Origin: Christensenella sp. UBA6094 | Lineage (GTDB): Bacteria; Bacillota; Clostridia; Christensenellales; UBA6094 | DNA: 64,000 nt | Assembly: GCA_002435915.1 (NCBI GenBank) | Contig: DIWY01000002.1 | Span: 86,006-150,005 of the forward strand | Direction: 5' to 3' | Part shown: positions 1 to 64,000 of the stretch, piece by piece | Position numbering within the stretch: the stretch's first letter is position 1 | Layout of the letters: each line of letters opens with the position of its first letter | Notes under the pieces: generated by a model | The model's database searches: none | Told to the model about the DNA's origin: nothing | Seen by the model: only the letters and a program-made list of their open reading frames with translations | Program-made: the position numbers and the translations under genes

Positions 1-50
1 TAAGAAAAGAAGTGGGAGTTTGAGGGCTAAGCCCTCATAATAAATAACTA

Positions 51-4227: not shown

Positions 4228-5571
4228 TTATTCTTTTATGCGCATCATAAGTTCTTCTACTATTTTTTTAAGATCATTATCAGTTTTAAGTTCTGTCTGT
4301 ATCTTATCAACAGCATGCAGAACTGTTGTATGATCTCTACCGCCAAAGTCGTTGCCTATCTTAGGTAGGGACATATCCGTTACGTCACGTATTAAGTACA
4401 TAGCTATTTGACGTGGATAGGATATTCCTCTAGAACGCTTTTTAGAGACCAACTCTTCTAAACTAATATTGTAATAGTCTGCGACTATTTTTTGTACATG
4501 TGCACAAGTTATCTTTTTCTTACGAGAAGATGGCAAAAAGTTTTTAAGTGCTTCTTCGGCAAGCTCAGCATCAACATCTCTACCTGTAAGTGATGCATAC
4601 GCTAGTACTCGCATAAGTGAACCTTCAAGCTCACGAATATTTGATTGTACCATAGAAGCTATATACAAAAATACATCGTCAGAAACACGTACGTTTTCTA
4701 TCTCAGCTTTTTTCCATAGTATAGCAACTCTTGTTTCAAGGTCCGGCGGAGAAATATCTACAGATAGCCCAGAGGAGAAACGAGACTGGAGCCTATCTTG
4801 TAATTTTGGTATATCTTGAGGCATTCTATCTGAGGATATAACGATTCGTTTATTTTTGGAGTACAGTTCATTAAACGTGTGGAAGAACTCTTCCTGTGTG
4901 CTTTCTTTATCGCCAATAAACTGTATATCATCTATTAATAGTACATCGACATCCCTGTATTTTCTTCTAAATGCTTCTCTTTGTGTAACGGATTTACCTG
5001 GCTGGAGTGACGAGATAAGTTCGTTTACAAATTGTTCGGAAGGCACATATAAAACTCTTGCAGAAGGAATATGGCTAATAACCTGATGACCAATTGCGTG
5101 CATTAGATGCGTTTTGCCAAGGCCTACACCACCGTAAATAAATAGTGGTGAAAAGTTCAAATTAGGATCCGTAGAGTAATTAAGTGCTGCCATGTGTGCT
5201 AGTTGGTTTGAGTTACCAACAACGTAATTATCAAATGTATATTTTGGGTTAAGGCCAATACCGTTTGGCACTTCAGCCACGCCAGTATTTTCAAGTTGCT
5301 TTATATAGATATCTTTTTCAGAGGGAGCTATAAGCTTTATATCGTACATGCCACTTGTAGCAGCACTAACGCACTGCCTTAGTAGGGATTCATATCTCAT
5401 ACGTATAATAGCTTTTTGGTCATCAGACGGCGCTTCGAGAAGTAGCTCTTTTCCGATAATGAGGAAAGGTTTGATGTCCTTAATATACGTAGAATAAGAA
5501 GCATCAGTCATCTCGTTTTTAATTATGCCTATTGATTTTGACCAGATATCTTTTAATAAAGCTGTTTCCAT
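4228..5571 (-). CDS. dnaA: Chromosomal replication initiator protein DnaA
   Basis: 447 aa with Walker A GGVGLGKTHL, an AAA+ core and a C-terminal DNA-binding domain (GGRDHTTVLHA). Confidence 0.95.
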   Translation of the reverse strand: METALLKDIWSKSIGIIKNEMTDASYSTYIKDIKPFLIIGKELLLEAPSDDQKAIIRMRYESLLRQCVSAATSGMYDIKLIAPSEKDIYIKQLENTGVAEVPNGIGLNPKYTFDNYVVGNSNQLAHMAALNYSTDPNLNFSPLFIYGGVGLGKTHLMHAIGHQVISHIPSARVLYVPSEQFVNELISSLQPGKSVTQREAFRRKYRDVDVLLIDDIQFIGDKESTQEEFFHTFNELYSKNKRIVISSDRMPQDIPKLQDRLQSRFSSGLSVDISPPDLETRVAILWKKAEIENVRVSDDVFLYIASMVQSNIRELEGSLMRVLAYASLTGRDVDAELAEEALKNFLPSSRKKKITCAHVQKIVADYYNISLEELVSKKRSRGISYPRQIAMYLIRDVTDMSLPKIGNDFGGRDHTTVLHAVDKIQTELKTDNDLKKIVEELMMRIKE

Positions 5572-7158: not shown

Positions 7159-7511
7159 ACGCGGTCAAAAGCTAGAAAACTCGAGATAGCATGCCGCGAC
7201 AGACTCACCGGCCAGCGGCCGGGAAAGTTTAATGACTAGCGATATAATGCACGCGGCTTTAAAAGTTAATTTACTATAATTGTATAACGCGTCGTCGATC
7301 CGGTCAGCGACCGGGGAAGATAAAAAATACACTTAACAATGGACGCGGACTAAAAAGTTAGTGAACTATAAAAACTATTCCGCGACAACCGGTCCAGCGG
7401 GACGCAGGGAAATTTAAAAACCCACTTCATAATGCACGCGGCTTTAAAAGTTAATTTACTATAATTGTATAACGCGTCGTCGGTCCAGCTGGAAGCTGGG
7501 GAAGAATAAAA
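7159..7511 (+). repeat. Four tandem units of about 92 bp filling the rnpA-yidD spacer
   Basis: Units start at 7159, 7251, 7343 and 7436, each beginning ACGCGG. Units 2 and 4 share a near-identical stretch of about 54 nt (ATAATGCACGCGGCTTTAAAAGTTAATTTACTATAATTGTATAACGCGTCGTCG). Each unit has an ACGCG(G)...(C)CGCG(T/A) stem around an AT-rich loop, then a GC hairpin (e.g. CCGGCC-AGC-GGCCGG), then GGGAA(A/G). Confidence 0.85.
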
Positions 7512-9563: not shown

Positions 9564-9618
9564 TTTGATAAAGTATTTATGGGGAGCTGAGCTCTTTTCT
9601 TGGGGCGCCGCGCTATTT

Positions 9619-9672
9619 TATGGGGCGCTGCCCCAAACCCTGTTACTTTTCTTAAAGAAAAGTAACAAAAGA
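9619..9672 (-). repeat. Family-1 multi-hairpin repeat, partial (modules D and C)
   Basis: TATGGGGCGCTGCCCCAAACC followed by a variant palindrome TTACTTTTCTT-A-AAGAAAAGTAA, whose arms changed in a compensatory way. Confidence 0.7.
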
Positions 9673-9951
9673 TAGATAAGAGAATGGCATAGAAAACTTT
9701 AGTTCTGTGAAATGGCTTTTTTGAAGAGAGAAAGTATACAAAATAATAGCATGGACGTAAAAGTGCCTGCAGGTGAACCCTGTCCAGCTCCTGCTGGACC
9801 CGTCCAACGTCCCGTTGGATCGTCTATCGCGTCAGAGAGACGGCTTGGAAAAACTTTAGTTCTGCGAATGGCTTTTTTGCGGAAATGTGTAAAAATAAAC
9901 AAAACTAGTCTTGAGAACAAAATAAATACTAACATTTATAATTTTCTAAAT

Positions 9952-10007
9952 ATCTTTTGCTTCTTTTCTTTAAGAAAAGAAGTGGAGGTATGGAGGCAAA
10001 GCCTCCA
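9952..10007 (+). repeat. Family-1 multi-hairpin repeat, partial (modules C and D)
   Basis: ATCTTTTG-CTTCTTTTCTTTAAGAAAAGAAG-TGGAGGTA-TGGAGGCAAAGCCTCCA, directly upstream of mnmE. Confidence 0.8.
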
Positions 10008-10045
10008 TAAAAACAACTTTTTCATACGCTTGGGAGGGATGAACC

Positions 10046-11386: not shown

Positions 11387-11399
11387 CAAAGAACATTTT

Positions 11400-11538
11400 G
11401 GAGACGCTGTCTCCAAGCCTCTGCCAAAGGGATGTATCCCTTTGGAATCCCAACGTAGAGTTATAATATTAATATATTCACGTTTCTTTTGCTTCTTTTC
11501 TTAAAGAAAAGAAGTGGGGGTATGGGGATGAAATCCCC
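11400..11538 (+). repeat. Family-1 multi-hairpin repeat, full copy (first of a tandem pair)
   Basis: Modules in order: A GGAGAC-GCT-GTCTCC; B CCAAAGGGATGTATCCCTTTGG; AT-rich spacer; C CTTCTTTTCTTAAAGAAAAGAAG; D GGGGAT-GAA-ATCCCC. Confidence 0.85.
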
Positions 11539-11546
11539 AAAAAAGA

Positions 11547-11667
11547 CCTCTGCCAAAGAGAAGCATCACTTTGGAAACCCAGCGCAGAGTTATAATATTA
11601 ATATTTTCGCGATTCTTTTGCTTCTTTTCTTAAAGAAAAGAAGTAGGGGCAAGGGGATGAAATCCCC
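11547..11667 (+). repeat. Family-1 multi-hairpin repeat, second tandem copy with degenerate module B
   Basis: CCTCTGCCAAAGAGAAGCATCACTTTGG, the same AT-rich spacer (GAGTTATAATATTAATAT), module C, then GGGGAT-GAA-ATCCCC. Confidence 0.8.
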
Positions 11668-11725
11668 ATAAACCCCCCCACCATTAGAAAGATTATAATT
11701 AGATTTAATATAAAGAGGGATACAT

Positions 11726-15720: not shown

Positions 15721-15771
15721 TATAGAAAATTTGATTTAATATAGTATTATTATAGTAGGCTATTAAAATTT

Positions 15772-15922
15772 TATGGAGGCTCTGCCTCCAAACCTCCGCT
15801 TCTTTTCTTAAAGAAAAGAAGGAAAAGATGTGTTGAGAAATTATTAAATCAATTATATTCTATTGGAGGGGATTCCCAAGGGATACATCCCTTTGGTGAT
15901 GGTTTGGAGGCAAAGCCTCCAA
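15772..15922 (-). repeat. Family-1 multi-hairpin repeat, full copy in inverted orientation
   Basis: Read on the plus strand: GGAGGC-TCT-GCCTCC, module C, AT-rich spacer, CAAGGGATACATCCCTTTGG, GGAGGC-AAA-GCCTCC. Confidence 0.85.
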
Positions 15923-15965
15923 GGTAGATTAATTAAAATAAATAACCAGTTATGAAAGGGTTTAT

Positions 15966-16664: not shown

Positions 16665-16835
16665 TTGCAAAACTAATTATAATACGGGATTTTGCATTTT
16701 CAAAAAAACTTTTTACAAATAAGCACGAATAAAGTCTAATATTCTGAACGAGGAAGGGAAATGGCATTAAATAAAGAATTAAGAGTTTATATTAAAGTTT
16801 ACAAAAAGAAAACTCGTTGTTTGGAGTGTAATGCA

Positions 16836-17708
16836 ATGTTTAACAAGAAACCTGACATATCTGATAAGTTTAACTCGGATAGAGAGATAATGGATTTGCC
16901 AATTGAAAATGTTATACCCAACCCGTATCAGCCCAGACGTGTTTTTGTTGAAGAAAAGATAGACGAGCTTGCAAAGTCTATTAACCAATATGGGCTCATT
17001 CAACCTATTGTTGTGCGCGAGCGTAAAGATGGATTGTTCGAGCTTGTGGCTGGTGAACGCAGGTTAAGAGCTAGCAAAAAGCTAGAGCATACTACCATAA
17101 AAGCGATAGTTATGTCTGCTGGCGAGGGTGATAGTGCTGTTATTGCCTTAATAGAAAACATACAGAGAGAAAACCTGCACTTTATGGAAGAGGCAGAAGC
17201 GTACGAAGCTCTTTTGAAGGATCACGGAATAACACAAGAGGAGCTGGCAGCAAGACTTGGTAAAAACCAGTCTACTATAGCCAACAAGCTACGTATACTG
17301 CGTTTGCCCGATTATGTAAAAGAGGCGGTTATCTCAAACAGGCTGACAGAGAGGCATGCAAGAGCACTGCTTAGGCTACATGACGAGCAGAGCCAGCTTA
17401 AGCTTGTTGATACGATAAGAAAAAAGAATTTGTCCGTTAAAGTGACAGAAGAGCTAGTTGAAAGACAGCTACAAACTTTATACGAAACGAAACCGAAAGC
17501 TCAGACGGGCAAGCTTATAAGAGTTCTAAGAGATTATCGAATATTTTTGAACTCTATAAAAACAGTCATAATGCAGATGAAAGAGGCCGATATCGATGCT
17601 CAGTTCAAGCAGTATGACGAAGAAGGATGCGTGCGTATAGAAATTATTATAAATAAGCCAGGTTCATCCCACCTGACAGCACAAGCGGAAGAGGTCAATT
17701 CCCTGTAA
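16836..17708 (+). CDS. noc: ParB/Noc-family nucleoid-associated protein (Noc-like)
   Basis: ORF 16761..17708; I prefer the ATG at 16836 (GGAG upstream), which gives about 290 aa. It has the ParB N-domain GERRLRA motif and an HTH (QSTIANKLRILRLP). The C-terminal layout resembles Bacillus Noc and the gene follows rsmG as noc does. Confidence 0.7.
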   Translation: MFNKKPDISDKFNSDREIMDLPIENVIPNPYQPRRVFVEEKIDELAKSINQYGLIQPIVVRERKDGLFELVAGERRLRASKKLEHTTIKAIVMSAGEGDSAVIALIENIQRENLHFMEEAEAYEALLKDHGITQEELAARLGKNQSTIANKLRILRLPDYVKEAVISNRLTERHARALLRLHDEQSQLKLVDTIRKKNLSVKVTEELVERQLQTLYETKPKAQTGKLIRVLRDYRIFLNSIKTVIMQMKEADIDAQFKQYDEEGCVRIEIIINKPGSSHLTAQAEEVNSL

Positions 17709-17768: not shown

Positions 17769-18008
17769 TAGGGACGCTGTTATTTGTGAGGGCTTTGCCC
17801 TCACACTCCCACTTCTTTTCTTAAAGAAAAGAAGCAAAAGATATGTAGAGATTATATTTATGCAAACATCGGTTCAACGGTCTGCTTGGTAGACTATATC
17901 CAAGCACTTTTACATAAAAGCAAAGATTACAAAAATATTAATAATTTTTAGATGGGATTCCAAAGGGATGCATCCCTTTGGCAGAGGTATGGAGACGGAG
18001 TCTCCATA
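17769..18008 (-). repeat. Family-1 multi-hairpin repeat, long-spacer full copy in inverted orientation
   Basis: TAGGGACGCTGTTATTT-GTGAGGGCTTTGCCCTCAC, module C, a spacer of about 120 nt, CCAAAGGGATGCATCCCTTTGG, then GGAGAC-GGA-GTCTCC. Confidence 0.8.
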
Positions 18009-18032
18009 GGCTTGTTTACGCGCTAAGGTTTT

Positions 18033-18306
18033 TAGGGACGCTGTCGTATTTGTGAGGGTTTCACCCTCACACTCCCACTTCTTTTCTTAAAGAAAAGAAG
18101 GAAAAGATATGTATAGTGTTTATTGTTGCTTGTTGAAAAATTCTCTAGCTTAAACAGGACTAAAGGCAAGTATACAGAAAGGACGAAACGGCTATTGATA
18201 TTATTTCTATTCATCGATCCAACAGGATGTTGGTCAATCCAACGGAACGTTGGCCGGTCCAGCAGGATGCTGGCCTTTTGCAGAGGTATGGAGACGGAGT
18301 CTCCAT
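18033..18306 (-). repeat. Family-1 multi-hairpin repeat, variant with alternative hairpin modules
   Basis: It has the same leader (TAGGGACGCTGTCGTATTT) as the preceding copy, then GTGAGGGTTTCACCCTCAC and module C. Module B is replaced by CCAACAGGATGTTGG (18219-18233), CCAACGGAACGTTGG (18239-18253) and a GGTCCAGC..GCTGGCC hairpin. It ends with GGAGAC-GGA-GTCTCC. Confidence 0.75.
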
Positions 18307-18508
18307 AGGCTTGCTTGTGACGGCTAAAGTGTTTTGGGGACGGAGCTCCCATATAATATAACAAACAAAAAAAGCAGCATGTTAGCCGCTCCTATCAAAT
18401 AACCATAAATATTAGGTGCTCAGAGTCTTTGTGAAAAGCATAAATAACAAACGCAGTAAGGAAAAAACCTCTGTGGATGCATTTTTATATTAAATTCTGT
18501 TAGTGCCC

Positions 18509-18928: not shown

Positions 18929-19003
18929 TGGGATGCTGTTATTTGTGAGGGGTTTACCCTCACACTCACACTTCTTTTCTTAAAGAATAGAAGGAAAAGA
19001 TAT
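18929..19003 (-). repeat. Family-1 multi-hairpin repeat, partial and decayed (modules D and C)
   Basis: GGGATGCTGTTATTT-GTGAGGGGTTTACCCTCAC followed by CTTCTTTTCTTAAAGAATAGAAG, which has one arm mismatch. Confidence 0.7.
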
Positions 19004-19020
19004 ATATGGATTAATTGATA

Positions 19021-20217: not shown

Positions 20218-20280
20218 AACCACTTAATTCTGCAAAGAACTAAAGCGGTTTTCAATTAATTTTTTATCTATACAATTCGA

Positions 20281-20336
20281 ATCTTTTGTTTCTTTTCTTT
20301 AAGAAAAGAAACAGAGGTATGGAGACGGAGTCTCCA
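20281..20336 (+). repeat. Family-1 multi-hairpin repeat, partial (modules C and D)
   Basis: ATCTTTTG-TTTCTTTTCTTTAAGAAAAGAAA-CAGAGGTA-TGGAGACGGAGTCTCCA. The palindrome arms changed C>T and G>A together. It lies just downstream of the rsmA stop. Confidence 0.8.
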
Positions 20337-20344
20337 TGTAATCT

Positions 20345-25574: not shown

Positions 25575-26040
25575 TTTGTGAAGGTTTTTGTGGCTGGAGT
25601 TAGGGGTTGGCTCCGCAAGCGTCGCTGAAGTGTCTCTGTAAGTGAATTTAGAGCGTCCCTGTGAGAGCCGTTGGAGGCAGTGCATAAGCGTTGTGCGTTT
25701 ACTTGATGCTGCGTATCTAAGTTCGCTCTCTTCGTACTTTTTTAGAAAAAGTACCAAAAATCGCCGACCACGCTACATCCGAAAAATGCAATTCCAAACG
25801 CTCGCGCTGGTTTTATAAATCGCCTTTAAGTTTGCTACAGCTCGGCTTATAAGTTTGCAAAAAGCAAAGCTTGTTGTTTTCTTCCATGCTACAGTTTTTA
25901 ACAGGAGACTTAAAGGCTCTATAAAACATTTTATCGCTCGCGTAGGCAGGTCGCATTTTTCTTCTTCCGCTTGAGGTCGGCTTCTTTTTTGGGTAGAGCT
26001 TTGGAGTGGAATTTGAGGAGCAGGAAACAAGGCTTTAAGG
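25575..26040 (+). repeat. Family-2 composite repeat, copy A (short arrays plus a core of about 310 bp at 25682-25992)
   Basis: The core aligns by eye along its length with 30881-31192 and 45255-45566. Short G/T-rich CTTTG-type units flank it on both sides. Confidence 0.85.
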
Positions 26041-30633: not shown

Positions 30634-30658
30634 TTGTGGATAAGATGGGATTTTTAGA

Positions 30659-31545
30659 GCGACTCTGTAAGCGACTCTGTAGTCGTCTCTGGGAGCGTCT
30701 TTGAAGTGCTTTTGCAAGTGCCTTTGGGAGAGTCTCTGGGAGCGTCTTTGCCGGTCGGCTCTGTAGTCGGCTCTGTAAGCGACTCTGTAAGCGACTCTGT
30801 AAGCGACTCTGCAAGTGCCTTTGGGAGAGTTTCTGAGAGCGTCTTTGCAAACGACTTTGTGAGTGGCTTCGGAGGCTAGCGCATAAGCGTTGCGCATTTA
30901 TTTTTTCTTGCGTATCTAAGTTCGCTTTCACTGTACTTTTTTAGAAAAAGTACCAAAAATCGCCGACTGTGCTCCATCCGAAAAATGCAATTCCACACGC
31001 TCGCGCAGGTTTTATAAATCGCCTTTAAGTTTGCTACAGAGCTATTTATTAGTTTGCAAAAAATAGAGCTTATGTTTTCTTCTCATGCTACAGTTTTTAA
31101 TAGGTGACTTAAAGGCTCTATAAAACATTCTGCACGCTCGCGTAGGCAGGTTGCATTTTTCTCCTTCCGCTTAAGGTCGGCTTCTTTTTTGTTGGGGCTG
31201 GTCTTTGAGGGCGATGGATAGGTTAGGGTTGGGCGATGAATAGGTTAGGGTTGGGCTTTGAGGGTGGCTTTTGGGGTGATGGATAGATTAGGGCAGGGCT
31301 TTGGGGTGGCTTCGGGGTGATGAATAGATTAGAGCTGGTCGTTGAAGGTGGCTACGGGGTGAAGAATAGGTTAGGGTTGGGCGTTGCGGGTGGATTTGGG
31401 GGAGAATGTTGGGTGGGCTTTATGGAAGCCTTTGCAAATTCTTTGTAGCGTTTTTGTGAGCTTCGTTGTGAGCGCCTTTGAAGGTGCTGTTGGAGTGGCG
31501 TTGCGAGCGAAGTTGGGATGGTAAAGCTAAGGGATGATGCAAACT
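30659..31545 (+). repeat. Family-2 composite repeat, copy B (left array 30659-30880, core 30881-31192, right array 31193-31545)
   Basis: The left array holds 18 units in strict 12-nt phase, including GCGACTCTGTAA three times in a row. The core has three nested stems. The right array holds units of about 11 nt of the GGGCTTTGAGGG / GGTTAGGGTTGG type. Confidence 0.9.
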
Positions 31546-42975: not shown

Positions 42976-43143
42976 ATGGAGGCTATACTCTTTTGGAGAC
43001 TTTGCCTCCAAACCACCACCAAAGGGATGCATCCCTTTGGAATCCCATCCAAAAGAATATTCTAAATATTAAATTAACTCTATACATATCTTTTCCTTCT
43101 TTTCTTTAAGAAAAGAAGTGGGAGTATGAGGGCGACGCCCTCA
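42976..43143 (+). repeat. Family-1 multi-hairpin repeat, full copy
   Basis: GGAGAC-TTT-GCCTCC (imperfect), CCAAAGGGATGCATCCCTTTGG, AT-rich spacer, module C, then TGAGGGC-GAC-GCCCTCA. An extra half-arm CGACGCCCTCA lies at 43153-43163. Confidence 0.85.
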
Positions 43144-43263
43144 TAACATAACCGACGCCCTCATGATACAAACAAAACGATAAATCAAAACCGAGCATAA
43201 GCTCGGTTTTTGTGTTGTAATAACTCTTTTTTTATAAACATACTCTTATAAAAGAGAAAAGGG

Positions 43264-45062: not shown

Positions 45063-46040
45063 AGCTTTTGGAGCGTCTTTGGAGCGCTTTTGCGAGTGTC
45101 TTTGCAAGAATCTCTGGAGAGCCTCTGGAGCGTCAGGTGTCTTTGCGAGCGCCTCTGGAGAGCCTCTGGAGAGCCTCTGTTGGTGTTTTGTTGGCGTTTA
45201 TGTTAGTGTCTTGTGGGCGCCTTTGGAGATACAATGTAAGCATCTTTGGAGACTAGCTCATAAATTTTCAGCGTATATTAATTTATTCGTATCTAAGTTC
45301 CTGTTTCGTTGTACTTTTTTAGAAAAAGTACCAAAAATCGCCGACTGCGCTCCATTCAAAAATGCAATTTTATACGCTCACGTTGGTTTTATAAATCGCC
45401 TTTAAGTTTGCTCCAGCTATTCTTATTAGTGTGCATGAAGTACAGCTTTTTTCTTTCGTGCTCCAGTTTGAAATAGGAGACTTAAAGGCTCTATAAAACA
45501 TTTTTATCGCTCGCGTAGGCAGGTTGCATTTTTTTCATTTACGCTAAGGTCGGCGTTTGTTTTTGCTTGGGTGGGTCTTTGAGGGGTGGTTGGGGTGAGG
45601 CTTTGAGGGGGTGGTTTGGAGTGGGGTTTTGAGGGATGGTTTGGAGTGGGGCTTTGAGGGATGGGGTTTTGGACGAGCTTTTTTGAGTGGAGTTAAGTTA
45701 GAGATTTCTGATAAAGTTTTGTTGCTTTTTTAGGTCGGGCGTTGTAGGTGCCTTTGTAGTTGATTTTGAAGTGTTTTTGTTAGTGTCACTGTTAGCCTTT
45801 GTAGGTGTCTTTGTGATCGCCTTTGAGGGAGGGTTTGGGCGGGACTTTGAGGGAAGGTTTGGAGTGGGTCTTTGAGGGGTGTTTTGTGTCAGGCTTTGAG
45901 GGAAGGTTTGGAGTGGGTCTTTGAGGGGTGTTTTGTGTCAGGCTTTGAGGGAAGGTTGGGGGGCTTTGAGGGACGGTTTGGGGTGGGAATTAAGGGGCGG
46001 TTTGAAGTGGGGATCTGAGGGACGGTCTGGGTGGGGCGTA
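45063..46040 (+). repeat. Family-2 composite repeat, copy C (left array 45063-45254, core 45255-45566, right array 45567-46040)
   Basis: The left array has units of the GCCTCTGGAGA / GTCTTTGCGAG type. The core is the most diverged of the three but keeps all three nested stems. The right array includes a near-exact tandem duplication of about 49 bp at 45842-45940. Confidence 0.9.
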
Positions 46041-46071
46041 GATAGATTAATAAAACTCGTGCTATTTTGGG

Positions 46072-55703: not shown

Positions 55704-56201
55704 TTACTTGTTATACTTTTTATCGCTATCTTCATTGACGAAAAGTGGTGCCTGAGGTTGCACACGCGTAAAATTCTTATAAAAGGCGACATCGTCACTA
55801 GGCGCACCTTTCTCAAACTGTTTAGAATTAAACATAGAAAGATAAGCATATAGCATTCGATATATAGCTTCCTGGTTCTCAGGGCTTACATCTGCTAAGC
55901 TTAGCATTTCGTTATATAGCGCTCTGTGTGTGGCTTTCAGCTTTTCCAGCTGCCGCAACTCTGTTGTTTGGAAAGATCCATATTGGTCTTGATCTGCATT
56001 TGCACTTAATAAGTAATCCGTTGATACACCCAAAATGTCAGCTAATTTTAATAAAGTCTCGAACTTTGGGGCGCGCTTGTTCTTTTCGTATTGCGAGAGT
56101 GTAGTGTTACAAATGTCCAGCATTGCAGCCAAGTCTTTTTGCGATAAATCTTTCTTGATACGTAGTTGCTTGATCGTTTCTCCAAAAGTAGAATTTGACA
56201 T
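55704..56201 (-). CDS. XRE-family repressor (phage cI-like)
   Basis: 165 aa with an N-terminal HTH_3 (IKQLRIKKDLSQKDLAAMLDICNTTLSQYEKNKR) and a C-terminal extension. It is divergent from the phage late genes. Confidence 0.8.
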   Translation of the reverse strand: MSNSTFGETIKQLRIKKDLSQKDLAAMLDICNTTLSQYEKNKRAPKFETLLKLADILGVSTDYLLSANADQDQYGSFQTTELRQLEKLKATHRALYNEMLSLADVSPENQEAIYRMLYAYLSMFNSKQFEKGAPSDDVAFYKNFTRVQPQAPLFVNEDSDKKYNK

Positions 56202-56599
56202 ACGCTTCTCTCCCTACATCAATAGTACTATTTTAAGTATGAACGGTAAGAAGTTATTCATTTTTATTTTCAACAAAATTCACGTAACGAGCATAAAATA
56301 TGTAGACATTTGCAATCGGTGAACATATAATGAAAATATATAGAATATTTTGTTTATAATAATTCGACATATAAATATAAATACCTACACTTGAGCTAAA
56401 AAAACTGTCCGAAGATTATATAAAGACTAATATATTTGATAGGTTGACACTAATATAATAGTTTATTGGCATAATGTAAACATAATAGAGCATGTATAAT
56501 AAAAATGTGAAAGATGTGAACTTTGTTTTAACAAAGGAAACACTTTTATATAATCGTACGAGAATAAAGCCGGCTAAAAAAGTATTTTGGAGGTTTATT

Positions 56600-57100
56600 A
56601 TGGATCGAGTATGTTATATAGAATATTTACTTAAAAACTATCATCGCTTTATGAGGGATATAAATCAACTTAAACTAGAGCTGGAATTTTTTGAATATGA
56701 ACAAAAAGAACGTACTATTGAGTCTATGGCTTTAAAACCAAGGACACAGGAGTGCACAGGAACAAAAGGAACAGCCGATTCGACAGGACATATTGCCCTT
56801 ATCTATAGAGAAGTAAATAGCAGACTAAACCAAACATCCAAACGTGACCTTGCTCATATTGTGAAAATTAGTGAGATGGAGATGAAAAAACTACTTGTAG
56901 CAATCGACGCACTCGACAAAAATATTGGTGATGTATTAAAAGATTTATACATTGGAAGACGTACATGGGATCAGATTTGTAATAAATATTTTATTACACC
57001 ATCAACACTAAACAGATACAGAAAGCGTGCAATAGGTGAGATTGCAGAGTCGTTTGACACAAAATACATGCTGTCGGATTTGTCGATGTTTACATACTAA
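56600..57100 (+). CDS. Putative phage late-gene transcriptional activator (sigma-70 region 4 / RinA-ArpU-like)
   Basis: ORF 56492..57100 trimmed to MDRVCYIEY with GGAGG upstream. It has a C-terminal HTH (RRTWDQICNKYFITPSTLNRYRKRAIGEI). Its position just before terS matches that of Xpf in PBSX. Confidence 0.6.
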   Translation: MDRVCYIEYLLKNYHRFMRDINQLKLELEFFEYEQKERTIESMALKPRTQECTGTKGTADSTGHIALIYREVNSRLNQTSKRDLAHIVKISEMEMKKLLVAIDALDKNIGDVLKDLYIGRRTWDQICNKYFITPSTLNRYRKRAIGEIAESFDTKYMLSDLSMFTY

Positions 57101-57192
57101 AAGTGTAGGCAAAATAATGGCATAAAGCTGATAGGCTACTGGCAGGCAAAATGATTTATTATTATAATAGATAAAAGCCATGGAGGTAGCAT

Positions 57193-57732
57193 ATGGATAA
57201 AACAAAGGACAAACTGGCAGAGCTTAAATTAACAAAAAGGCAGATTTTATTCTGCCTTTTTTATTTGAGAGATTTTGATGTGAGGAAGGCAGCATATCGG
57301 GCAGGAATTGCAAAAAAAGATAATGCTGCATACGTAGGAACATTACTACTTGGACGAAAGAACATAAAAGAAGCATTAGAATATTTAAAAGGCGAAGCAG
57401 GAAATAGAACCCATGTAGAGCTTACTAGCATAGTGGATCTGTACACCCGCATTGCGTTTGCAGACTATAGCGAATACGTAAAATACTACAAGAACGAAAA
57501 AGAAGAATGGGTAAGCGATATAGATTTTGAAGAAGTCGATGGACAGCTTATTGACGAGATATCGGCAAGCAAAACGGGAGTCAAAATAAAATTCTTGGAT
57601 AGATTTAAGGCGCTGGAAAAGCTCGAAAAGCTGATGGGTAATTCAGAGGAGATGGCGGAAGACAGTAACAACATAACGGTTATTACAGCGGTGCAAAGAC
57701 CAGAAAGGCAGGATACATATGAAACAGATTAA
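57193..57732 (+). CDS. Terminase small subunit
   Basis: 179 aa. The N-terminal LTKRQILFCLFYLRDFDVRKAAYRAGI is typical of the Terminase_2 family. Confidence 0.8.
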   Translation: MDKTKDKLAELKLTKRQILFCLFYLRDFDVRKAAYRAGIAKKDNAAYVGTLLLGRKNIKEALEYLKGEAGNRTHVELTSIVDLYTRIAFADYSEYVKYYKNEKEEWVSDIDFEEVDGQLIDEISASKTGVKIKFLDRFKALEKLEKLMGNSEEMAEDSNNITVITAVQRPERQDTYETD

Positions 57733-57798
57733 AAGAGCAACAAATGCATTGGTCTATTATCTACGGTTATGCTATGTGCGATTTAGGAATGAGATTGT

Positions 57799-59235
57799 AT
57801 GTATATAGAAAACGCTAGCGCGAAAAACAAGAAAAAGCTCGAGCTAAAGTACGTGCCTACGGAAAAACAGCAGATGTTTCATTTATCTGATGCTGACGAA
57901 GTACTTTATGGTGGTGCGGCTGGTGGCGGCAAGTCTATGGCGATAACTATGGAAGCGCTACTAAGAGCCATGGAAACACCTGGCGTAAATTGTTACGTGT
58001 TTAGGCGCACTTACCCTGAGCTAAAAGACGTAATAATTACGCTTGCTAGGCGGTACTATCCTGAGGATGTGGGCGAGTTCACTAACAGTGGCAAAGATTT
58101 TAAACTGATTAACGGTTCATCGGTGCGCTTTAGACACTGCTTTAAGGATAGTGACGTCTACAGATACCAAGGTGCTGAAATTCACTATCTGTTTATTGAC
58201 GAGCTGACGCACTTTCCGCTTTCTGTCTACGACTATCTAAAATCTCGGCTTAGAGCGCCAAAAGAACTTAACATTACGCCATGCGTTAGAGCTACGTCAA
58301 ACCCTGGAGGCATCGGACACGCTTGGGTTAAGCAGTATTTTATTGACAGAGGTACTCCATATGAAAAAAACGAGGTGCGAATATATTCTAGCGTGCTTAA
58401 GCAAGAGAAAACGGTAAGCGTGCAGTACATTCCTGCGCTTGTAACGGATAATCCGCATATGCCTAAGGATTATATATACGAACTGGAGAAAAAGCCTAAG
58501 GCGCTTAAAAATGCACTTCTACACGGATTGTGGACAGCATTTGAGGGACAGGCGTTCATGGAGTTCACTGACGATAGCACTCATTACAAAGATGGGTGCT
58601 ATACGCATGTTATAGCGCCTTTTAGTGTGCCAGAGGATTGGCCACGCTATAGGTCGTTTGACTTTGGTTACTCTCGACCGTTTGCTGTGCAGTGGTGGGC
58701 TGTAGCTCCAGATGACACCGTGTATATGTACAGAGAATGGTACGGCAGCAAGGATGGCGACAACAAAGGGCTAAAGCTTACAGCACGTGAGATAGCACAG
58801 CGCATAACCGAAATAGAAAATGAGGCAGCCGAGAAACCAATTGGAATAGCTGACCCATCTATATGGGATGCAAGCAGAGGTGAGTGCATAGCTGAGCAGA
58901 TGGCTGTCTGTGGCGTTCAGTTTTCGCCCGCGGATAACGCGCGTCTTTCGGGCAAAATGCAGATGCACTATAGGCTGGCTTTTGATGAAAAAGGCAAGCC
59001 TGCAATGCAAGTGTTCTACACATGCAAAAATTTTATTAGAACGATAGCGTCGCTGACAACAGATCCGCTAAAGGTTGAGGACGTAGACACAAGAGCAGAG
59101 GATCACAGCTACGATGCGGCAAGGTATTTTCTTATGGCAAGACCAATAGGCAAAAAACAAGAGCCTATTAAGAAACGAAACTATAATCCGCTTGAGGTGT
59201 ATGAGCCGGAAAGTAATGGATTTTTAGAATATTAA
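57799..59235 (+). CDS. Terminase large subunit
   Basis: 478 aa with Walker A GGAAGGGKS, Walker B LFIDELTH and a C-terminal nuclease domain. Confidence 0.9.
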   Translation: MYIENASAKNKKKLELKYVPTEKQQMFHLSDADEVLYGGAAGGGKSMAITMEALLRAMETPGVNCYVFRRTYPELKDVIITLARRYYPEDVGEFTNSGKDFKLINGSSVRFRHCFKDSDVYRYQGAEIHYLFIDELTHFPLSVYDYLKSRLRAPKELNITPCVRATSNPGGIGHAWVKQYFIDRGTPYEKNEVRIYSSVLKQEKTVSVQYIPALVTDNPHMPKDYIYELEKKPKALKNALLHGLWTAFEGQAFMEFTDDSTHYKDGCYTHVIAPFSVPEDWPRYRSFDFGYSRPFAVQWWAVAPDDTVYMYREWYGSKDGDNKGLKLTAREIAQRITEIENEAAEKPIGIADPSIWDASRGECIAEQMAVCGVQFSPADNARLSGKMQMHYRLAFDEKGKPAMQVFYTCKNFIRTIASLTTDPLKVEDVDTRAEDHSYDAARYFLMARPIGKKQEPIKKRNYNPLEVYEPESNGFLEY

Positions 59236-59248
59236 GGAGGTAAAATTA

Positions 59249-60844
59249 ATGCAAAAAAAGCAAAAGCAAAACGAAGAGCTAATTAAAAAAGCTTATGATC
59301 TGTTTGATGAGTTTTATTCAGGAACGCTGGAATTTAGAAGAAAGTGCATAGATAACGAAGAATTTTACAGGGCAAACCACTGGGCAAATATACCGTCCAA
59401 GGCTGGCGAGCCACAGCCTGTCACTCCTGTACTGTTCTCTACTATCGAAAGTATTTTGGGCGACATAATGGATAGTTATCCTGAGCCTGTGATATTAGGT
59501 GAAGAGGAGCAGGACGAAAAAGTGGCCAGTGATGTGAACGACATAGTCAATTACATTATAAAAAGACGCCGATATAAAAGCATATACAGAGATAAGTGTA
59601 GGCAGGCACTGAAAAAAGGCGTGAGCGTGCAGGAGGTATTCTGGGATAAGACACTCTATAATGGACTTGGGGATATAAACATACGGCAATGGGATATATT
59701 AAACTTTTTGTGGGACCCAAAATCAGAGACGCTGCAAGAAGGCAGAGCAGTTTTTAAGTTCGGCTTCTACACTAAAGAATACATATGCGAGCGCTATCCT
59801 TTCTCTAAAGACATGTTAAAAACAGACACATACTCTCGGCTTTCGTATCTTGGCGACACGGCACCTGATGAAGATGTGATGATAATGGATTACTGGTACA
59901 AAGAGTATGACGAAAACGGCAAAGCGCATGTGCACATGGCAAAGCTTGCTGGGCATGTACTGCTTGAAGATAGCAAAGAAGAGTGTCCATATGGCATGCA
60001 GATAAGCGGTCAATACCCGTTCGTTATGGAAAGCCCGTATCCGCTTGAAGGTCAGCCGGTCGGAATAGGCATAATAGATATATTTAAAAACCTACAGATT
60101 TATGCTGATAAGCTTGACCAGATCATACTGAAAAATGCGCTTATGTCTTCTAAACTTAAGCTACTTGTGAACAGGAACTCGGACATTGACGAAAGTGCGC
60201 TGAACGATTGGAGCAAGGAAATAATCAAGGCAAACAGGATAGATGATGGAGCTATAAGATGGTTTCAACCTGCTTCGCTTAACCCGTACGTTTTAACGCA
60301 CTATAACAGCAAGCTGGAATCTATAAAAGAAGAGAGTGGTCAGTCACAATTCACAAGAGGTGAAGGAGGTAAGGGCATTACAGCGGCATCTGCAATCTTA
60401 GCACTACAAGAGGCGGGCTCTAAAAGATCAAGAACGCTTGTGGATCAGCTATATGATGGGTTTGAGAATGTTGTGAGGCTAATCATTGATCTTATTTGCG
60501 AGAATTACACAGAGGAAAGACGCTTTAGGATAATAAACGAAAAAGGTGCTAAAACGATCAGCTTTAAAAACAGTGATGTAAAAAAAGGCACGAAAGATCT
60601 TTCTCGGTTTATTGATTTTGATATCAGCATTGCTGTGCAAAAGCAGACGCCGTATAAGACGCTGTATCAAAATGAACTGGCGTTGGAGCTTTTAAAAGCG
60701 GGCGTTATTGTGCCTGACGAAGCACTGTCGATGATGACTTTTACAGGCAAAGACACACTGCTAGAATCCGTGAAAAAGAGAAATGAAAAAGAGCAGATGG
60801 AAAAGGCGCTACAGCTAAATTCTAAGGAGCTGATTGCGCCATGA
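59249..60844 (+). CDS. Phage portal protein
   Basis: 531 aa. Size and position after TerL support the call, and the layout is SPP1 gp6-like. Confidence 0.8.
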   Translation: MQKKQKQNEELIKKAYDLFDEFYSGTLEFRRKCIDNEEFYRANHWANIPSKAGEPQPVTPVLFSTIESILGDIMDSYPEPVILGEEEQDEKVASDVNDIVNYIIKRRRYKSIYRDKCRQALKKGVSVQEVFWDKTLYNGLGDINIRQWDILNFLWDPKSETLQEGRAVFKFGFYTKEYICERYPFSKDMLKTDTYSRLSYLGDTAPDEDVMIMDYWYKEYDENGKAHVHMAKLAGHVLLEDSKEECPYGMQISGQYPFVMESPYPLEGQPVGIGIIDIFKNLQIYADKLDQIILKNALMSSKLKLLVNRNSDIDESALNDWSKEIIKANRIDDGAIRWFQPASLNPYVLTHYNSKLESIKEESGQSQFTRGEGGKGITAASAILALQEAGSKRSRTLVDQLYDGFENVVRLIIDLICENYTEERRFRIINEKGAKTISFKNSDVKKGTKDLSRFIDFDISIAVQKQTPYKTLYQNELALELLKAGVIVPDEALSMMTFTGKDTLLESVKKRNEKEQMEKALQLNSKELIAP

Positions 60845-60980
60845 TAATAATAAGCATATACATCACATTTTGCGCCGTTGGAATGGTACTTAGCCATTGC
60901 AATATGACGCATTTTTTATAACCGTTAAGAGGCGGAAACGCTTTTTATAAACCTACAGTACACAAAAGGAGGAAAAGTTA

Positions 60981-61676
60981 ATGGAAGAAACGGTCGAAAA
61001 TGTAATAGAGCAGGACGACGCTGCAATGGACGCCGATATGGGCGGTAATACTGATTATTATAGGAGCCAAGAGGAAGTAGACAGGGCGTTTAAAAAGCGT
61101 CTTGAGCGCGAACGCAGGAAATGGGAGGCTTCGCTTAAGGAACGATCGGGCGAAAAGGCAGAAGCATTGGAAGACAAAAGAGCTGGCGATGAACAGCAAG
61201 CTAAATCTAGCGAAGACATCGTAAACGAACAGCTTGGAGAAATAGAGAGTGAGCTTGAGCCGTATCTGAAAAACATTGAAGCCGAAGGGGAAATGCCAAG
61301 CGAGCAGGAAGAGGACGACTATGAAACAGAAGCGTTTGTTGAATCTGTGCTAAAGGAAGTCAGTGAGCTAGAGCAGTTATATGAAGACTTAGACCTCACG
61401 GAAGAGCTTAGCAATCCATTATTCACGCACATGCTAAAAGAAGGGCAGCCACTCAAGAAAGTCTACGATTATTTTAAACCGCAAAAATCTAGAGATGCGG
61501 TCTATAAAGAAGTAGAAAGAGAAGTAACAGAGCACATAAGAGCCAGAAACGCTAAGCCAAGCTCAATAGCCTATGCAAACGCAAGCAGTGCTTCCTATGA
61601 TATATCGCGGCTTAGCCAAAGAGATATAGAAGAGATTGACAGGCGCGTAAAGCGCGGCGAACGTGTTGTGCTGTAG
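60981..61676 (+). CDS. Phage scaffolding-like protein
   Basis: 231 aa, highly charged and coiled-coil-like, located between the portal and capsid genes. Confidence 0.6.
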   Translation: MEETVENVIEQDDAAMDADMGGNTDYYRSQEEVDRAFKKRLERERRKWEASLKERSGEKAEALEDKRAGDEQQAKSSEDIVNEQLGEIESELEPYLKNIEAEGEMPSEQEEDDYETEAFVESVLKEVSELEQLYEDLDLTEELSNPLFTHMLKEGQPLKKVYDYFKPQKSRDAVYKEVEREVTEHIRARNAKPSSIAYANASSASYDISRLSQRDIEEIDRRVKRGERVVL

Positions 61677-61701
61677 GAAATAATTTAGGAGATGAAGAAA
61701 G

Positions 61702-62661
61702 ATGACACAAAATACAAACTTAACAACAGCTACTGGGATATCAGCAACCATGCAAACATACTACGACAGAAAGCTACTGATAAACGCAAAACCAAATCTA
61801 GTGCACCATAAATTTGGGCAACAGGTCATGCTACCTAAAAACAGTGGCAAGACCATACAATTCAGAAAATGGACACCTTTTGCAGCTGTAAGTACACCAC
61901 TAACAGAAGGCGTAGTTCCAGACGGACAAACACTTGAAATGACAACCGTATCCGGTCAGATCGAGCAATATGGCGGGTACGTAGCAGTGTCTGACATGCT
62001 TGACCTAACTGCTCTTGATCCTGTAATAAACGATTCAGTTGAGCTGATGGGAGATCAAGGAGGGTTAACAGTCGACACTATTGTAAGAGATGCTATCTCA
62101 AACGTAGCAAACGTTCAATACGCAGGCGGCAAAACTACAAGAGCAGAGCTAGTTTGGACAACAGAGACTCAGGATAAGCTAACAATTAATGAAATCAGAA
62201 AAGCTGTTAGGACACTTAAAAAGAACAGAGCGCCACAGTTTGTTAGAGGCGGAAAAGGCTACTATGTTGCTATCGTTGGACCGGAAACTACATACGATTT
62301 GCAGTCTGACGCTATCTGGCAGGACGTATCCAAGTATTCGGCAGCTGAGCAGATATTCGATGGCGAAATCGGCAAGCTCTTTGGTGTAATATTCGTTGAG
62401 ACGACTCAAGCAAAGATATTTACTGGTGCAGGAACAGAAGGCAGGGATGTTGGAGCAACTCTTGTATTTGGTAAAAATGCATATGGCGTAATCGATGTTG
62501 AGGGCAATAACCTTAGATCGATTATCAAACCAAAAGGGTCAGCAGGAACAGCAGATCCACTAGACCAAATATCCACAATCGGTTGGAAGGTCGGCGGATT
62601 CTCTGCTAAAATACTACAACCGCTATGGATAGTAAGAATAGAACATCTATTTAGCAACTAA
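61702..62661 (+). CDS. Phage major capsid protein (HK97-fold)
   Basis: 319 aa, positioned after the scaffold. The N-terminus MQTYYDRKLLINAKPNLVH resembles the N4-gp56-type capsid family as I recall it. Confidence 0.75.
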   Translation: MTQNTNLTTATGISATMQTYYDRKLLINAKPNLVHHKFGQQVMLPKNSGKTIQFRKWTPFAAVSTPLTEGVVPDGQTLEMTTVSGQIEQYGGYVAVSDMLDLTALDPVINDSVELMGDQGGLTVDTIVRDAISNVANVQYAGGKTTRAELVWTTETQDKLTINEIRKAVRTLKKNRAPQFVRGGKGYYVAIVGPETTYDLQSDAIWQDVSKYSAAEQIFDGEIGKLFGVIFVETTQAKIFTGAGTEGRDVGATLVFGKNAYGVIDVEGNNLRSIIKPKGSAGTADPLDQISTIGWKVGGFSAKILQPLWIVRIEHLFSN

Positions 62662-62673
62662 TTGATGGGTTTT

Positions 62674-62850
62674 TTGAGGGCTTTGCCTTCGTAATAGGAG
62701 GCTCTGCCTCAAAACCTCCGCCAAAGGAACAAGTCCCTTTGGAATCCCGTACATAAAAAAATTTATTTTAGTATCTTTTGCTTCTTTTCTTTAAGAAAAG
62801 AAGTGGGTGCTCGAGGGCAACGCCCTCGTAACATGGAGGCAGAGCCTACA
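62674..62850 (+). repeat. Family-1 multi-hairpin repeat, full copy inside the phage head module
   Basis: TGAGGGCTTTGCCTTCG, GGAGGC-TCT-GCCTC, CCAAAGGAACAAGTCCCTTTGG, spacer, module C, CGAGGGC-AAC-GCCCTCG, plus an extra TGGAGGCAGAGCCTACA. Confidence 0.85.
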
Positions 62851-62941
62851 TAATAGCAAATAACTAACAAAAGGCGCTTAAGGAGGAGCTGGAAGATTGG
62901 CTTCTCCTTTTCTGCGTCCTTAAATAAAAGGAGGATTCATT

Positions 62942-63199
62942 ATGGCAACAGTTAATACCACAAAGTCAGCATCAAAAGGCATCTCGCAACAGCAGATAGA
63001 CGAGATAGCAAAAGTTACAGGCAAGTACCTTGGTGATGAAGCGAAGGTGCTAGTTAGAATACCGGCAGTACCAGGCGCACAGGATGACGCATACGTAGAG
63101 TGCTGCATAAACGGCTACAACTACATAATCAAAAGAGGTGAAAGCGTCAAAGTTCCCGTTTCCATCGCCGAGCTTCTTCAAAACGCTGGGATCGTTTAA
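62942..63199 (+). CDS. Hypothetical phage head-associated protein
   Basis: 85 aa with a strong RBS (AAAGGAGG), located between the capsid and connector genes. Confidence 0.6.
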   Translation: MATVNTTKSASKGISQQQIDEIAKVTGKYLGDEAKVLVRIPAVPGAQDDAYVECCINGYNYIIKRGESVKVPVSIAELLQNAGIV

Positions 63200-63210
63200 C
63201 GAGGGGTTAA

Positions 63211-63343
63211 TTGGAGGCGCTGCCTCCAAACCACCGCAAAGGGATGTATCCCTTTGGAATCCCAACTATAAATATATTTATACTAAGTATCTTTTCCCTC
63301 TTTTCTTTAAGAAAAGAGGTGGGAGCTCGAGGGCAAAGCCCTC
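63211..63343 (+). repeat. Family-1 multi-hairpin repeat, full copy (reference architecture)
   Basis: Modules in order: A TTGGAGGC-GCT-GCCTCCAA then ACCACCG; B CAAAGGGATGTATCCCTTTGG then AATCCC; AT-rich spacer; ATCTTTTCC; C CTCTTTTCTTTAAGAAAAGAG; GTGGGAGCT; D CGAGGGC-AAA-GCCCTCG. Confidence 0.9.
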
Positions 63344-63372
63344 GTATAATAACTCAAAATGAGGTGATATAG

Positions 63373-63909
63373 ATGACACTGAAAGAGATAATGGAACTAT
63401 CGCTACGGCTTATGATGGAGGACGTAGACGAAGAAACGCTTGGTGAGTTTTCGCCACTACTCAAAAGCGTAATAAACGATGCGTATATAGACATATGCAG
63501 ATTCAAGTACGTACCGATAAAGAGCGAGGTAGTGACGCTAAGCGATGGCGCGTTTAATACATCGATCCTAAGTGAAAAGCTAAACAACATAATCACTATA
63601 AAGAGCGGCGATAAAGAGCTACTGTATCATGTTGAAGATGGAGTATGCACGGTACTTACTAAAGAAAATGAGAGCGTTACAGTAAGATACTCGTATGTTC
63701 CGCAAATGCTCGCGGCGGATACCGACAGCCCGATATTTCCGCAAGAGTACCATAGCTGTCTTGCTGACTATGCAGTATATAGAGTGCTGGGTACAGGCTC
63801 AGGCGCTAGGCAGGCACGAGCGCTTTTCTTTTTTGATACGTACGTACGGCAGGCAAATAAGATTGAACGGATGGAGCAAAACGAAACTATTGGGAAAAAG
63901 TATGAGTGA
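63373..63909 (+). CDS. Phage head-tail connector/head-completion protein
   Basis: 178 aa. The call rests on position downstream of the capsid module; sequence support is weak. Confidence 0.5.
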   Translation: MTLKEIMELSLRLMMEDVDEETLGEFSPLLKSVINDAYIDICRFKYVPIKSEVVTLSDGAFNTSILSEKLNNIITIKSGDKELLYHVEDGVCTVLTKENESVTVRYSYVPQMLAADTDSPIFPQEYHSCLADYAVYRVLGTGSGARQARALFFFDTYVRQANKIERMEQNETIGKKYE

Positions 63910-63920
63910 GGAGGTAAGCT

Positions 63921-64000
63921 ATGTCAGAAGTATTATTGAAAATGGGCCCGTTTTTGGGCATAGATCAGTCGACAAATGAAGGCGATATTTCGGTTTTCTC
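63921..64000 (+). CDS. Phage protein, 5-prime fragment (runs off the window)
   Basis: The ATG at 63921 is preceded by GAGGAGG, and the frame (MSEVLLKMGPFLGIDQSTNEGD...) stays open to the window end. Confidence 0.4.
   Translation, partial: MSEVLLKMGPFLGIDQSTNEGDISVF

Follow-up and report, generated by a model that had tools for sequence, protein, structure and literature searches.

The window, a stretch of 64,000 nucleotides from Christensenella sp. UBA6094, is chromosomal DNA surrounding the replication origin. The gene dnaA lies at 4228-5571 on the minus strand, and the plus strand carries, in this order, yidC, jag, mnmE, mnmG, a DEAD-box helicase gene, rsmG and a noc-like gene of the parB family; the annotated ORFs of the window are housekeeping or phage structural genes. 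Few relatives of the host are on record: four or five metagenomic proteins match its MnmE at 78-94% identity, and all others, those of Christensenellaceae included, at only about 45%.

A phage-like head and tail module occupies about 55.7-64 kb of the window. With the ~4 kb that follow 55704-64000 beyond the window (L146:2332-14708), it forms a compact block of ~12.5 kb that adjoins dnaB and rplI. Its genes encode an HTH repressor, the small and large terminase, a P22/SU10-type portal, the capsid, a protein of 85 aa, an SU10-type adaptor, two large proteins and a lysin, and integrase and replication genes are absent; a defective podovirus and a gene-transfer-agent-like element are both possible identities. 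The module has a relative in L084, an IMG/VR contig of 6.9 kb, whose capsid is 90% identical.

Several other features accompany these genes. A THF riboswitch stands at 689-787 on the minus strand, ahead of an ECF-transporter S-component gene (94 bits, for a gathering score of 36). Between rnpA and yidC, a 93-nt tandem repeat (7246-7486; 2.6 copies, 68% matches) has a GGTCCAGCGGAC-type hairpin inside. A second repeat family, unrelated to the hairpin units described below, is present at 25659-26030, 30858-31190 and 45235-45563 (~250-330 nt, 82-86% identity); no Rfam match was found for it. Every copy is near G/T-rich tandem arrays with a period of 12, 24, 25 or 42 nt, which lie at 30645-30872, 31209-31405, 45065-45171 and 45567-46049.

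The subject of this work is a hairpin-forming repeat found between the genes. The preliminary description gave it a modular reference architecture of four successive hairpins, A to D. Modular it is, but the four-hairpin reference is an inverted pair of two homologous units with two hairpins each, and the part-copies noted alongside it, while real sites, are single C-units and not fragments of a four-hairpin element. The building block, 60-70 nt long, is a unit in which a linker joins hairpin 1 to hairpin 2 and a tail follows. In hairpin 1 (19-21 nt), a GC-rich stem of 8 bp carries a triloop closed by C-G; the two strands of the linker (CCNCC/GGNGG) read AACCNCCGC and GCGGGAGTT. Hairpin 2 sets the two unit types, B and C. 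In B-units it is CCAAAGGGA-N4-TCCCTTTGG, with the tail GAAWCCC, and in some of them the loop is GNRA-like (GAAA, CGAAG); in C-units it is the palindrome (G)CTTCTTTTCTT-W-AAGAAAAGAAG(C), called palindrome C here, with the tail GCAAAAGAT. A full element consists of a B-unit, a variable spacer and an inverted C-unit, for which reason its ends form a terminal inverted repeat of ~26 nt. The elements of the window are the following:

1-42, plus strand: right end of a full element (half of palindrome C and hairpin 1), cut at the window edge.
9576-9679, minus strand: C-unit variant with palindrome C arms TTAC/GTAA and hairpin 1 GGGGC/GCCCC; a run of degenerate hairpin-1 copies with a 21-nt period (9576-9628) precedes the unit.
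9690-9880, no strand: accessory modules between two facing C-units, GAAAACTTTAGTTCTGYGAAATGGCTTTTTT twice and a hairpin train at 9785-9832; the GAAAACTTTAGTTCTGYGAAATGGCTTTTTT module is also present, reversed, at about 20228-20255.
9942-10015, plus strand: single C-unit, upstream of mnmE.
11395-11547, plus strand: full element, between mnmE and mnmG.
11544-11677, plus strand: tandem second copy, made of a B hairpin and a C-unit without hairpin A, 88-89% identical to its neighbour.
15766-15926, minus strand: full element, between the DEAD-box helicase gene and rsmG; its ~26-nt terminal inverted repeat is plain because both hairpin-1 copies are GGAGGC.
17779-18010, minus strand: full element with a 108-nt spacer, directly after the terminator of the noc-like gene.
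18045-18311, minus strand: full element with a long spacer, a hairpin train at 18217-18275 (20-nt period), a degenerate B hairpin and hairpin 1 at about 18283-18303.
18938-19007, minus strand: single C-unit whose palindrome C has one mismatch, directly after a terminator-like hairpin.
20275-20344, plus strand: single C-unit with arms TTTC/GAAA and hairpin 1 GGAGAC/GTCTCC, between convergent genes.
42989-43153, plus strand: full element, with a signal peptidase gene on one side and an M23 peptidase gene on the other.
62674-62856, plus strand: full element with a degenerate hairpin-1 copy on each side (62677-62691 and 62838-62854), between the phage capsid gene and the 85-aa gene.
63208-63352, plus strand: full element used as the reference, a B-unit and an inverted C-unit.

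The reference element divides as follows:

63211-63229: hairpin 1 (A).
63230-63236: linker.
63237-63256: hairpin B.
63257-63263: tail GAATCCC.
63264-63288: AT-rich spacer.
63289-63296: tail ATCTTTTC.
63297-63319: palindrome C.
63320-63327: linker TGGGAGCT.
63328-63344: hairpin 1 (D).

Units are arranged as single C-units, as B and C pairs, as tandem copies and, in relatives, as inverted pairs of B-units (L060:211-349, L049:4875-5012). Inverted pairs occur most often, yet many units stand alone, and the arms differ in type. In both unit types the triloop of hairpin 1 is 90% purine on the strand where the G-rich linker comes first (192 of 213 bases in C-units, with B-units as the mirror image), and the two arms within one element have opposite polarity. 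The mosaic includes extra modules as well: hairpin trains with a 20-nt period and the GAAAACTTTAGTTCTG motif, joined in relatives by a GAAATGCC-N-GGCATTTC hairpin and by arrays of GGGGAAC heptads. The trains at 9785-9832 and 18217-18275, inside two composite elements, consist of mini-hairpins of the forms CCAGCxxCCTGCTGG and CCAACGTYCCGTTGG. A long-range helix between the B tail (CCCN) and the C linker (NGGG) was considered and rejected: it can pair in about half of 52 elements, follows lineage and does not covary.

All 13 copies and part-copies listed beforehand were recovered, and no others, with an nhmmer profile of six full copies (E<1e-6, with reverse-strand self-matches of the palindromes set aside). 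The hits cover 1-42, 9611-9676, 9942-10012, 11395-11545, 11544-11677, 15768-15926, 17783-18006, 18049-18306, 18942-19007, 20275-20340, 42989-43153, 62692-62836 and 63207-63354. Palindrome C, with two mismatches allowed, has 12 sites in the window where chance would give 0.01, and hairpin B with its tail has seven where chance would give 0.00. The stem variants quoted at the outset were all found again: the palindrome C arms CCTC/GAGG (63297), TTAC/GTAA (9643) and TTTC/GAAA (20289), and the stems GGAGGC, GGAGAC, GAGGGC, GGGGAT and GGGGC. Copies occur on both strands and, as had been claimed, always between genes: every one falls between ORFs with Pfam domains. The reference copy folds as DNA with -35.1 kcal/mol (z = -8.0 against shuffles) and as RNA with z = -6.0 on the plus strand and -5.0 on the minus strand.

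The family continues outside the window. At 1-42 only the right end of a full element falls inside the edge, six more copies lie within 9 kb to the left on the same contig, and to the right a cluster of B-units follows the last phage-like gene. In 84 kb of this DNA, 17 of 20 copies sit no farther than about 20 kb from dnaA. The most similar pair in the window, the tandem one, is 89% identical; since no two window copies are identical, there is no sign of a recent burst.

Covariation was measured on 52 B-units and 71 C-units, drawn from at least 17 species as well as the window, in counts that include related, non-independent copies. Among the B-units, 96.8% of stem cells form standard pairs, compared with 34-58% for slid partner columns, and 119 two-sided changes occur where column shuffles give 32.5. 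The C-units behave alike, with 97.2% of stem cells paired and 120 two-sided changes against 35.9 in shuffles; for both sets together, 97% of cells are paired, versus 34-60% in slid controls. In hairpin D, compensatory changes affect seven of eight pairs. The compensatory stem changes first read from the window copies are thus borne out, as hairpins A, B and D stay paired through many two-sided changes, also between orthologous copies of sister species. Some orthologous copies differ in such a way, for instance CCAAAGGGAT versus CTTAAGGGGT in L043 and L037, that their "compensatory" differences look like the exchange of a whole subfamily variant, through conversion or replacement, and not like stepwise co-substitution. 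Even so, the variant population keeps its pairing.

Selection for structure rather than for sequence, as initially proposed, describes hairpins A, B and D but not palindrome C, whose core sequence is conserved. Palindrome C is a perfect 23-bp dyad with an odd central base. Its inner 15 nt are invariant in 11 of the 12 window copies, and its inner pairs depart from consensus in only one or two of the 71 C-units, in hosts of 38-64% G+C; covariation is confined to the outer 4 bp. The C-unit set was seeded with the exact palindrome C pattern and so understates variation in C, and its alignment also takes in copies that this pattern did not select.

Over the four helices, in about 2,200 cells, mismatches include 32 G·T and 32 A·C, so that G·U makes up about 1.4% of cells. 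A selected RNA helix should tolerate G·U far better than A·C, and the equal counts therefore favour a constraint at the level of DNA. The same is favoured by the mixed orientation of copies among genes that lie mostly on the plus strand, by the opposite polarity of the arms and by hairpins that lack T-tracts. RNA or single-stranded DNA had been offered originally; of these, a constraint on DNA is preferred to a single functional transcript. The argument carries the caveat that palindromes fold on the transcript of either strand. Wobble pairs were also read for the strand of function: hairpin B by itself is skewed, with one G·T and 11 A·C, and hairpins A and D and palindrome C show no such lean.

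The family reaches well beyond this genome. A scan of species-representative genomes for exact palindrome C returned at least 80 loci, from at least 19 assemblies among the matches listed; these 19 are labelled Christensenellaceae, Oscillospiraceae, Clostridia or Bacillota, and two of them look mis-binned. The palindrome C loci of relatives have 42-64% G+C, compared with 38% in the window. Overall, no fewer than 17 species-level genomes and about 40 metagenome contigs carry the family. Scanning metagenomes with the B hairpin added 46 further contigs, mostly GC-rich, many of which have B-units and no C-units. Many contigs begin or end within a repeat. BLAST found no similar sequence in curated phage and plasmid collections, exact palindrome C had no hit in IMG/VR, and of the 11 IMG/VR hits to the B-unit pattern two are real units, the others lying in coding sequence. 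Common carriage by phages was rejected on these IMG/VR counts.

Two observations in relatives concern sequences that accompany the units. In several of them, palindrome C or hairpin 1 is directly adjoined by arrays of GGGGAAC/GAGGAAC heptads (L005:325-398, L005:4045-4117, L007:7790-7847, L053:5950-5986, L028:880-930, L049:440-500), which in one lineage replace hairpin 1 entirely. At L036:7091-7966, a B-unit and a C-unit stand around an AT-rich ORF of 196 aa without a Pfam hit, in a host genome of 57% G+C. This ORF may be cargo or a later insertion into the element; a larger autonomous version of the repeat was rejected, as this is the sole gene-enclosing unit pair and its ORF has no Pfam hit.

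Comparison of orthologous sites shows how the units behave over time. In species whose flanks are 85-93% identical, the same intergenic sites are occupied, with hairpin variants swapped and modules inserted. The spacer between mnmE and mnmG was compared across four related species, that of the window and those of L086, L087 and L088. It holds 1.9 tandem copies in the window and one copy in the same orientation in L086. In L087 this copy is inverted in place (L086:9225-9397 and L087:2379-2526): the two are 88% identical as reverse complements and 51% directly, their flanks are colinear, and the breakpoints are the outer feet of both hairpin-1 stems. L088 has a decayed copy, oriented as in L087. 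In L086 and L087, dnaA, yidC, jag, mnmG and helicase genes are split into pieces; from the split gene calls and the contig names we infer frameshift errors of long-read assembly, because of which small indels in these two should not be over-read.

At another site, L034 and L051 are filled with differing unit combinations and the distant L063 is empty. The phage-like module has its own record: between the capsid gene and the 85-aa gene, the window has an element where the related L084 has only a plain hairpin, the next spacer holds three units in L084 and one full element in the window, and the more distant phage L085 has no units. The units have thus been swapped, duplicated, lost, inserted into a phage-like element and, once, flipped exactly.

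The repeat was not recognised when it was first described, and it has no match in Rfam, in phage or plasmid collections, or in the literature searched. No Rfam family matches the units at gathering thresholds or at permissive E-values, the best scores being 17.6-18.5 bits for Clostridiales-2 (gathering 58.6) and 15.7 for IS605-orfB-II (gathering 88); the sole hit above threshold in the window is the THF riboswitch, away from the elements. The exact repeat strings appear in no paper of the searched literature, which also gave nothing relevant on repeats of Christensenellaceae. It is a genuine, uncatalogued family of modular palindromic-unit repeats.

Searches for a partner or a parent of the family were negative. 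The 150 flanking ORFs fall into 142 different Pfam families with no recurrent partner, and clustering of ORFs across 80 loci found none either. No Y1 (HUH) transposase is present in the annotated ORFs of the window or among the families that have at least two of the 150 flanking ORFs, and about 1 Mb of DNA revealed no full-length parent insertion sequence whose ends match. Target-site duplication is not detectable in 21 full elements, where the mean length of the best direct repeat at the flanks is 1.67 nt, compared with 1.35 ± 0.27 for shuffled pairs, values with which a 2-bp duplication is compatible.

Known signals were sought too. A terminator scan gave marginal hits with weak T-runs at the element hairpins, which are followed by no T-tract, and placed genuine terminators beside the elements and not inside them; a promoter scan gave 30 sites in the elements and 27.5 in shuffled sequence. 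As neither scan was enriched inside elements, identity as terminators or promoters was rejected. No match to canonical parS was found in about 1 Mb of window and related DNA. A parS or Noc site is an even palindrome of 14-16 bp, TGTTNCACGTGAAACA or ATTTCCCGGGAAAT, and palindrome C, with 23 nt, is odd. The parB-family gene, which lies at 16761-17708 on the plus strand after rsmG, with the soj/spo0J pair absent downstream, is a Noc orthologue (312.8 bits for a cut-off of 315). Noc proteins of solved structure have the identical recognition helix, QSTIANKLR, and because of this the orthologue should bind an ordinary Noc site and not palindrome C. A role of palindrome C as parS or Noc site was rejected in view of its odd central base and the standard recognition helix of this protein. 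At two other places in the window, 6263 and 23410, the sequence resembles a Noc site. Integron attC identity was rejected as well: inspection of the copies showed no RYYYAAC/GTTRRRY core sites, there is no integrase gene, and copies lie in both orientations among housekeeping genes.

The modules of BOX are not known to resemble the hairpin units in sequence. In other respects BOX (boxA, boxB and boxC of Streptococcus pneumoniae) is close: it too has a Firmicute host, a variable number of modules with mutually complementary end modules, intergenic copies in both orientations, no coding capacity and no known transposase. It differs in that the modules here are hairpins with heavy covariation, and that the present family spans many genera and a wide range of G+C.

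With REP/BIME of enterobacteria and REPIN of pseudomonads, the family shares short, GC-rich, imperfect palindromes in high copy number between genes, in which structure is kept and sequence varies. Like them it forms singles, inverted doublets and mosaics with other motifs, leaves no target duplication and persists vertically at its sites. Hairpin 1, with 19-21 nt and 13 copies per 64 kb, is within the size, abundance and extragenic position of REPs (20-40 nt, many, extragenic). REP palindromes are described as having a conserved GTAG or CGTC tetranucleotide at their foot (PMC3733652). Hairpin 1 has no such tag: its flanks are TT/AA, ACGT or the linker (G)CGGGAG / AACCNCC, and GTAG appears in two or three copies only. 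The units here also differ from REP and REPIN in having two hairpins, several stem variants per genome and no identical copies. Finally, the hosts are uncultured Clostridia and not Proteobacteria, and no RAYT gene was found in the window or among the flanking ORFs.

The Correia elements of Neisseria and the MITEs RUP, bcr1 and Nezha resemble the full element in their size of ~150 nt, their ~26-nt terminal inverted repeats, their intergenic position and their co-transcription, and pairing of their ends can give RNA hairpins. Whereas Correia elements have terminal repeats of conserved sequence and a TA duplication, the terminal repeats here vary, each forms its own hairpin, and no duplication is detectable; within one genome the end stems are GGAGGC, GAGGGC, GGGGAT, GGAGAC and others. 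The IS200/IS605-derived PATEs are alike in their subterminal hairpins, the absence of target duplication and a probable single-strand DNA chemistry. However, IS200/IS605 ends are not inverted repeats and insert 3' of a fixed target of 4-5 nt, while the present units have no conserved flanking motif and neither tnpA nor tnpB nearby. The comparison with BOX, REP/BIME or Correia-type elements drawn at first thus stands in part: in behaviour the family is closest to REP/BIME, REPIN and BOX, but it lacks the REP tag as well as the duplication and the conserved ends of a MITE.

The explanation we favour, at about even confidence, is that of a non-coding, non-autonomous mosaic of palindromic units, similar to REP/BIME and BOX and maintained through DNA hairpins by a mechanism that we infer. 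On this view the DNA itself would have to pair, forming hairpins or a cruciform on either strand, and this would serve copying, rearrangement or repair by a factor encoded elsewhere. The factor would recognise structure, as an HUH/Y1-type or another hairpin-binding enzyme might, and would make its sequence-specific contacts with the invariant, AT-rich core of palindrome C and with the B hairpin, which is conserved; effects on transcripts, as mRNA stem-loops, would be secondary. Against this explanation, no candidate enzyme was found among window and flanking ORFs, and, in contrast to typical REPIN populations, the window has no identical copies that would betray a recent burst. A host function is also compatible with the long retention at orthologous sites and with a palindrome C core kept exactly across G+C contents. 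More tentatively, we can imagine a long-lived partnership between a hairpin-specific DNA enzyme and the two-hairpin units, across a wide range of uncultured Clostridia and phages. It would span hosts of 38-64% G+C whose MnmE proteins are only ~45% identical, and an enzyme that cuts the feet of the hairpin-1 stems would produce precise flips and unit shuffling with no target duplication.

Long retention at orthologous sites would also suit host-selected RNA elements acting in cis, co-transcribed with the genes beside them, be it as stabilisers of upstream mRNA, as RNase III/Y processing sites or as partial attenuators of read-through, for instance behind the capsid gene. The units are always intergenic, often in 3' regions adjoining terminators; their RNA structure is strong and significant, some B hairpins have GNRA-like loops, and the capsid gene, which is highly expressed, is followed by a unit at the place of a plain hairpin in the related phage. 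We nevertheless regard this role as rather unlikely, given hairpins without T-tracts and with only marginal terminator hits, both orientations relative to transcription, opposite polarity of the two arms in one element, G·U no commoner than A·C, which is unusual for a selected RNA helix, and no Rfam threshold reached. That the units are genes for small independent RNAs appears highly improbable: they contain no consistent promoter-like site (30 against 27.5 in shuffled sequence), and their two orientations, variable spacers, common part-copies and lack of an Rfam family all disagree with it, although in some genomes GGGGAAC heptads are followed by palindrome C with its tail and then by a GC hairpin with a T-run.

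Two further accounts rest on double-stranded DNA or on transposition. Palindrome C, and perhaps hairpin B, could be bound by a host protein that acts as a dimer (nucleoid-associated, regulatory or chromosome-organising, for instance), with sites scattered especially around the origin. The perfect 23-bp dyad, an inner 15 nt that hardly varies even at 64% G+C, the concentration of 17 of 20 copies near dnaA, the position of both recorded sites of genome OY771363 beside mnmG and rsmG, and the lack of canonical parS in about 1 Mb all agree with such a site. We consider it unlikely, as the only ParB-family gene nearby is the Noc orthologue with its standard recognition helix, the odd central base is unlike parS and the Noc site, and the covarying stems of hairpins 1 and B, the units without palindrome C and the copies in the phage-like element would all be left unexplained. 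More doubtful still is an ordinary MITE, in which the full element would descend from a DDE-type insertion sequence and its ~26-nt terminal inverted repeats would be recognised by a transposase. Mutually inverted ends, a length of 135-160 nt, intergenic position, contig breaks and a DDE_Tnp_1 domain in two of 150 flanking ORFs would suit it. But target-site duplication is not above chance, the terminal repeats vary between copies of one genome and between the two ends while each stays self-complementary, single units and mixed combinations are common, and no parent element was seen in about 1 Mb of DNA.

The repeats break assemblies of poorly known anaerobic Clostridia and mark intergenic regions in many MAGs, and two viral contigs or more contain them too. 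Annotation and binning would gain from a model of the unit. How palindromic repeats persist can be studied here in a clean case, with near wobble-free pairing, a core that resists G+C drift, shuffling at fixed sites and exact inversion. If a cognate enzyme exists, REPIN-like systems would be extended beyond Proteobacteria, and it could give a new hairpin-specific DNA tool; should the partnership hold true, it would be a Firmicute counterpart of REPIN-RAYT with a different unit design. If there is no such enzyme, the units would still be a resource for the effects of intergenic hairpins on mRNA or the nucleoid in Firmicutes.
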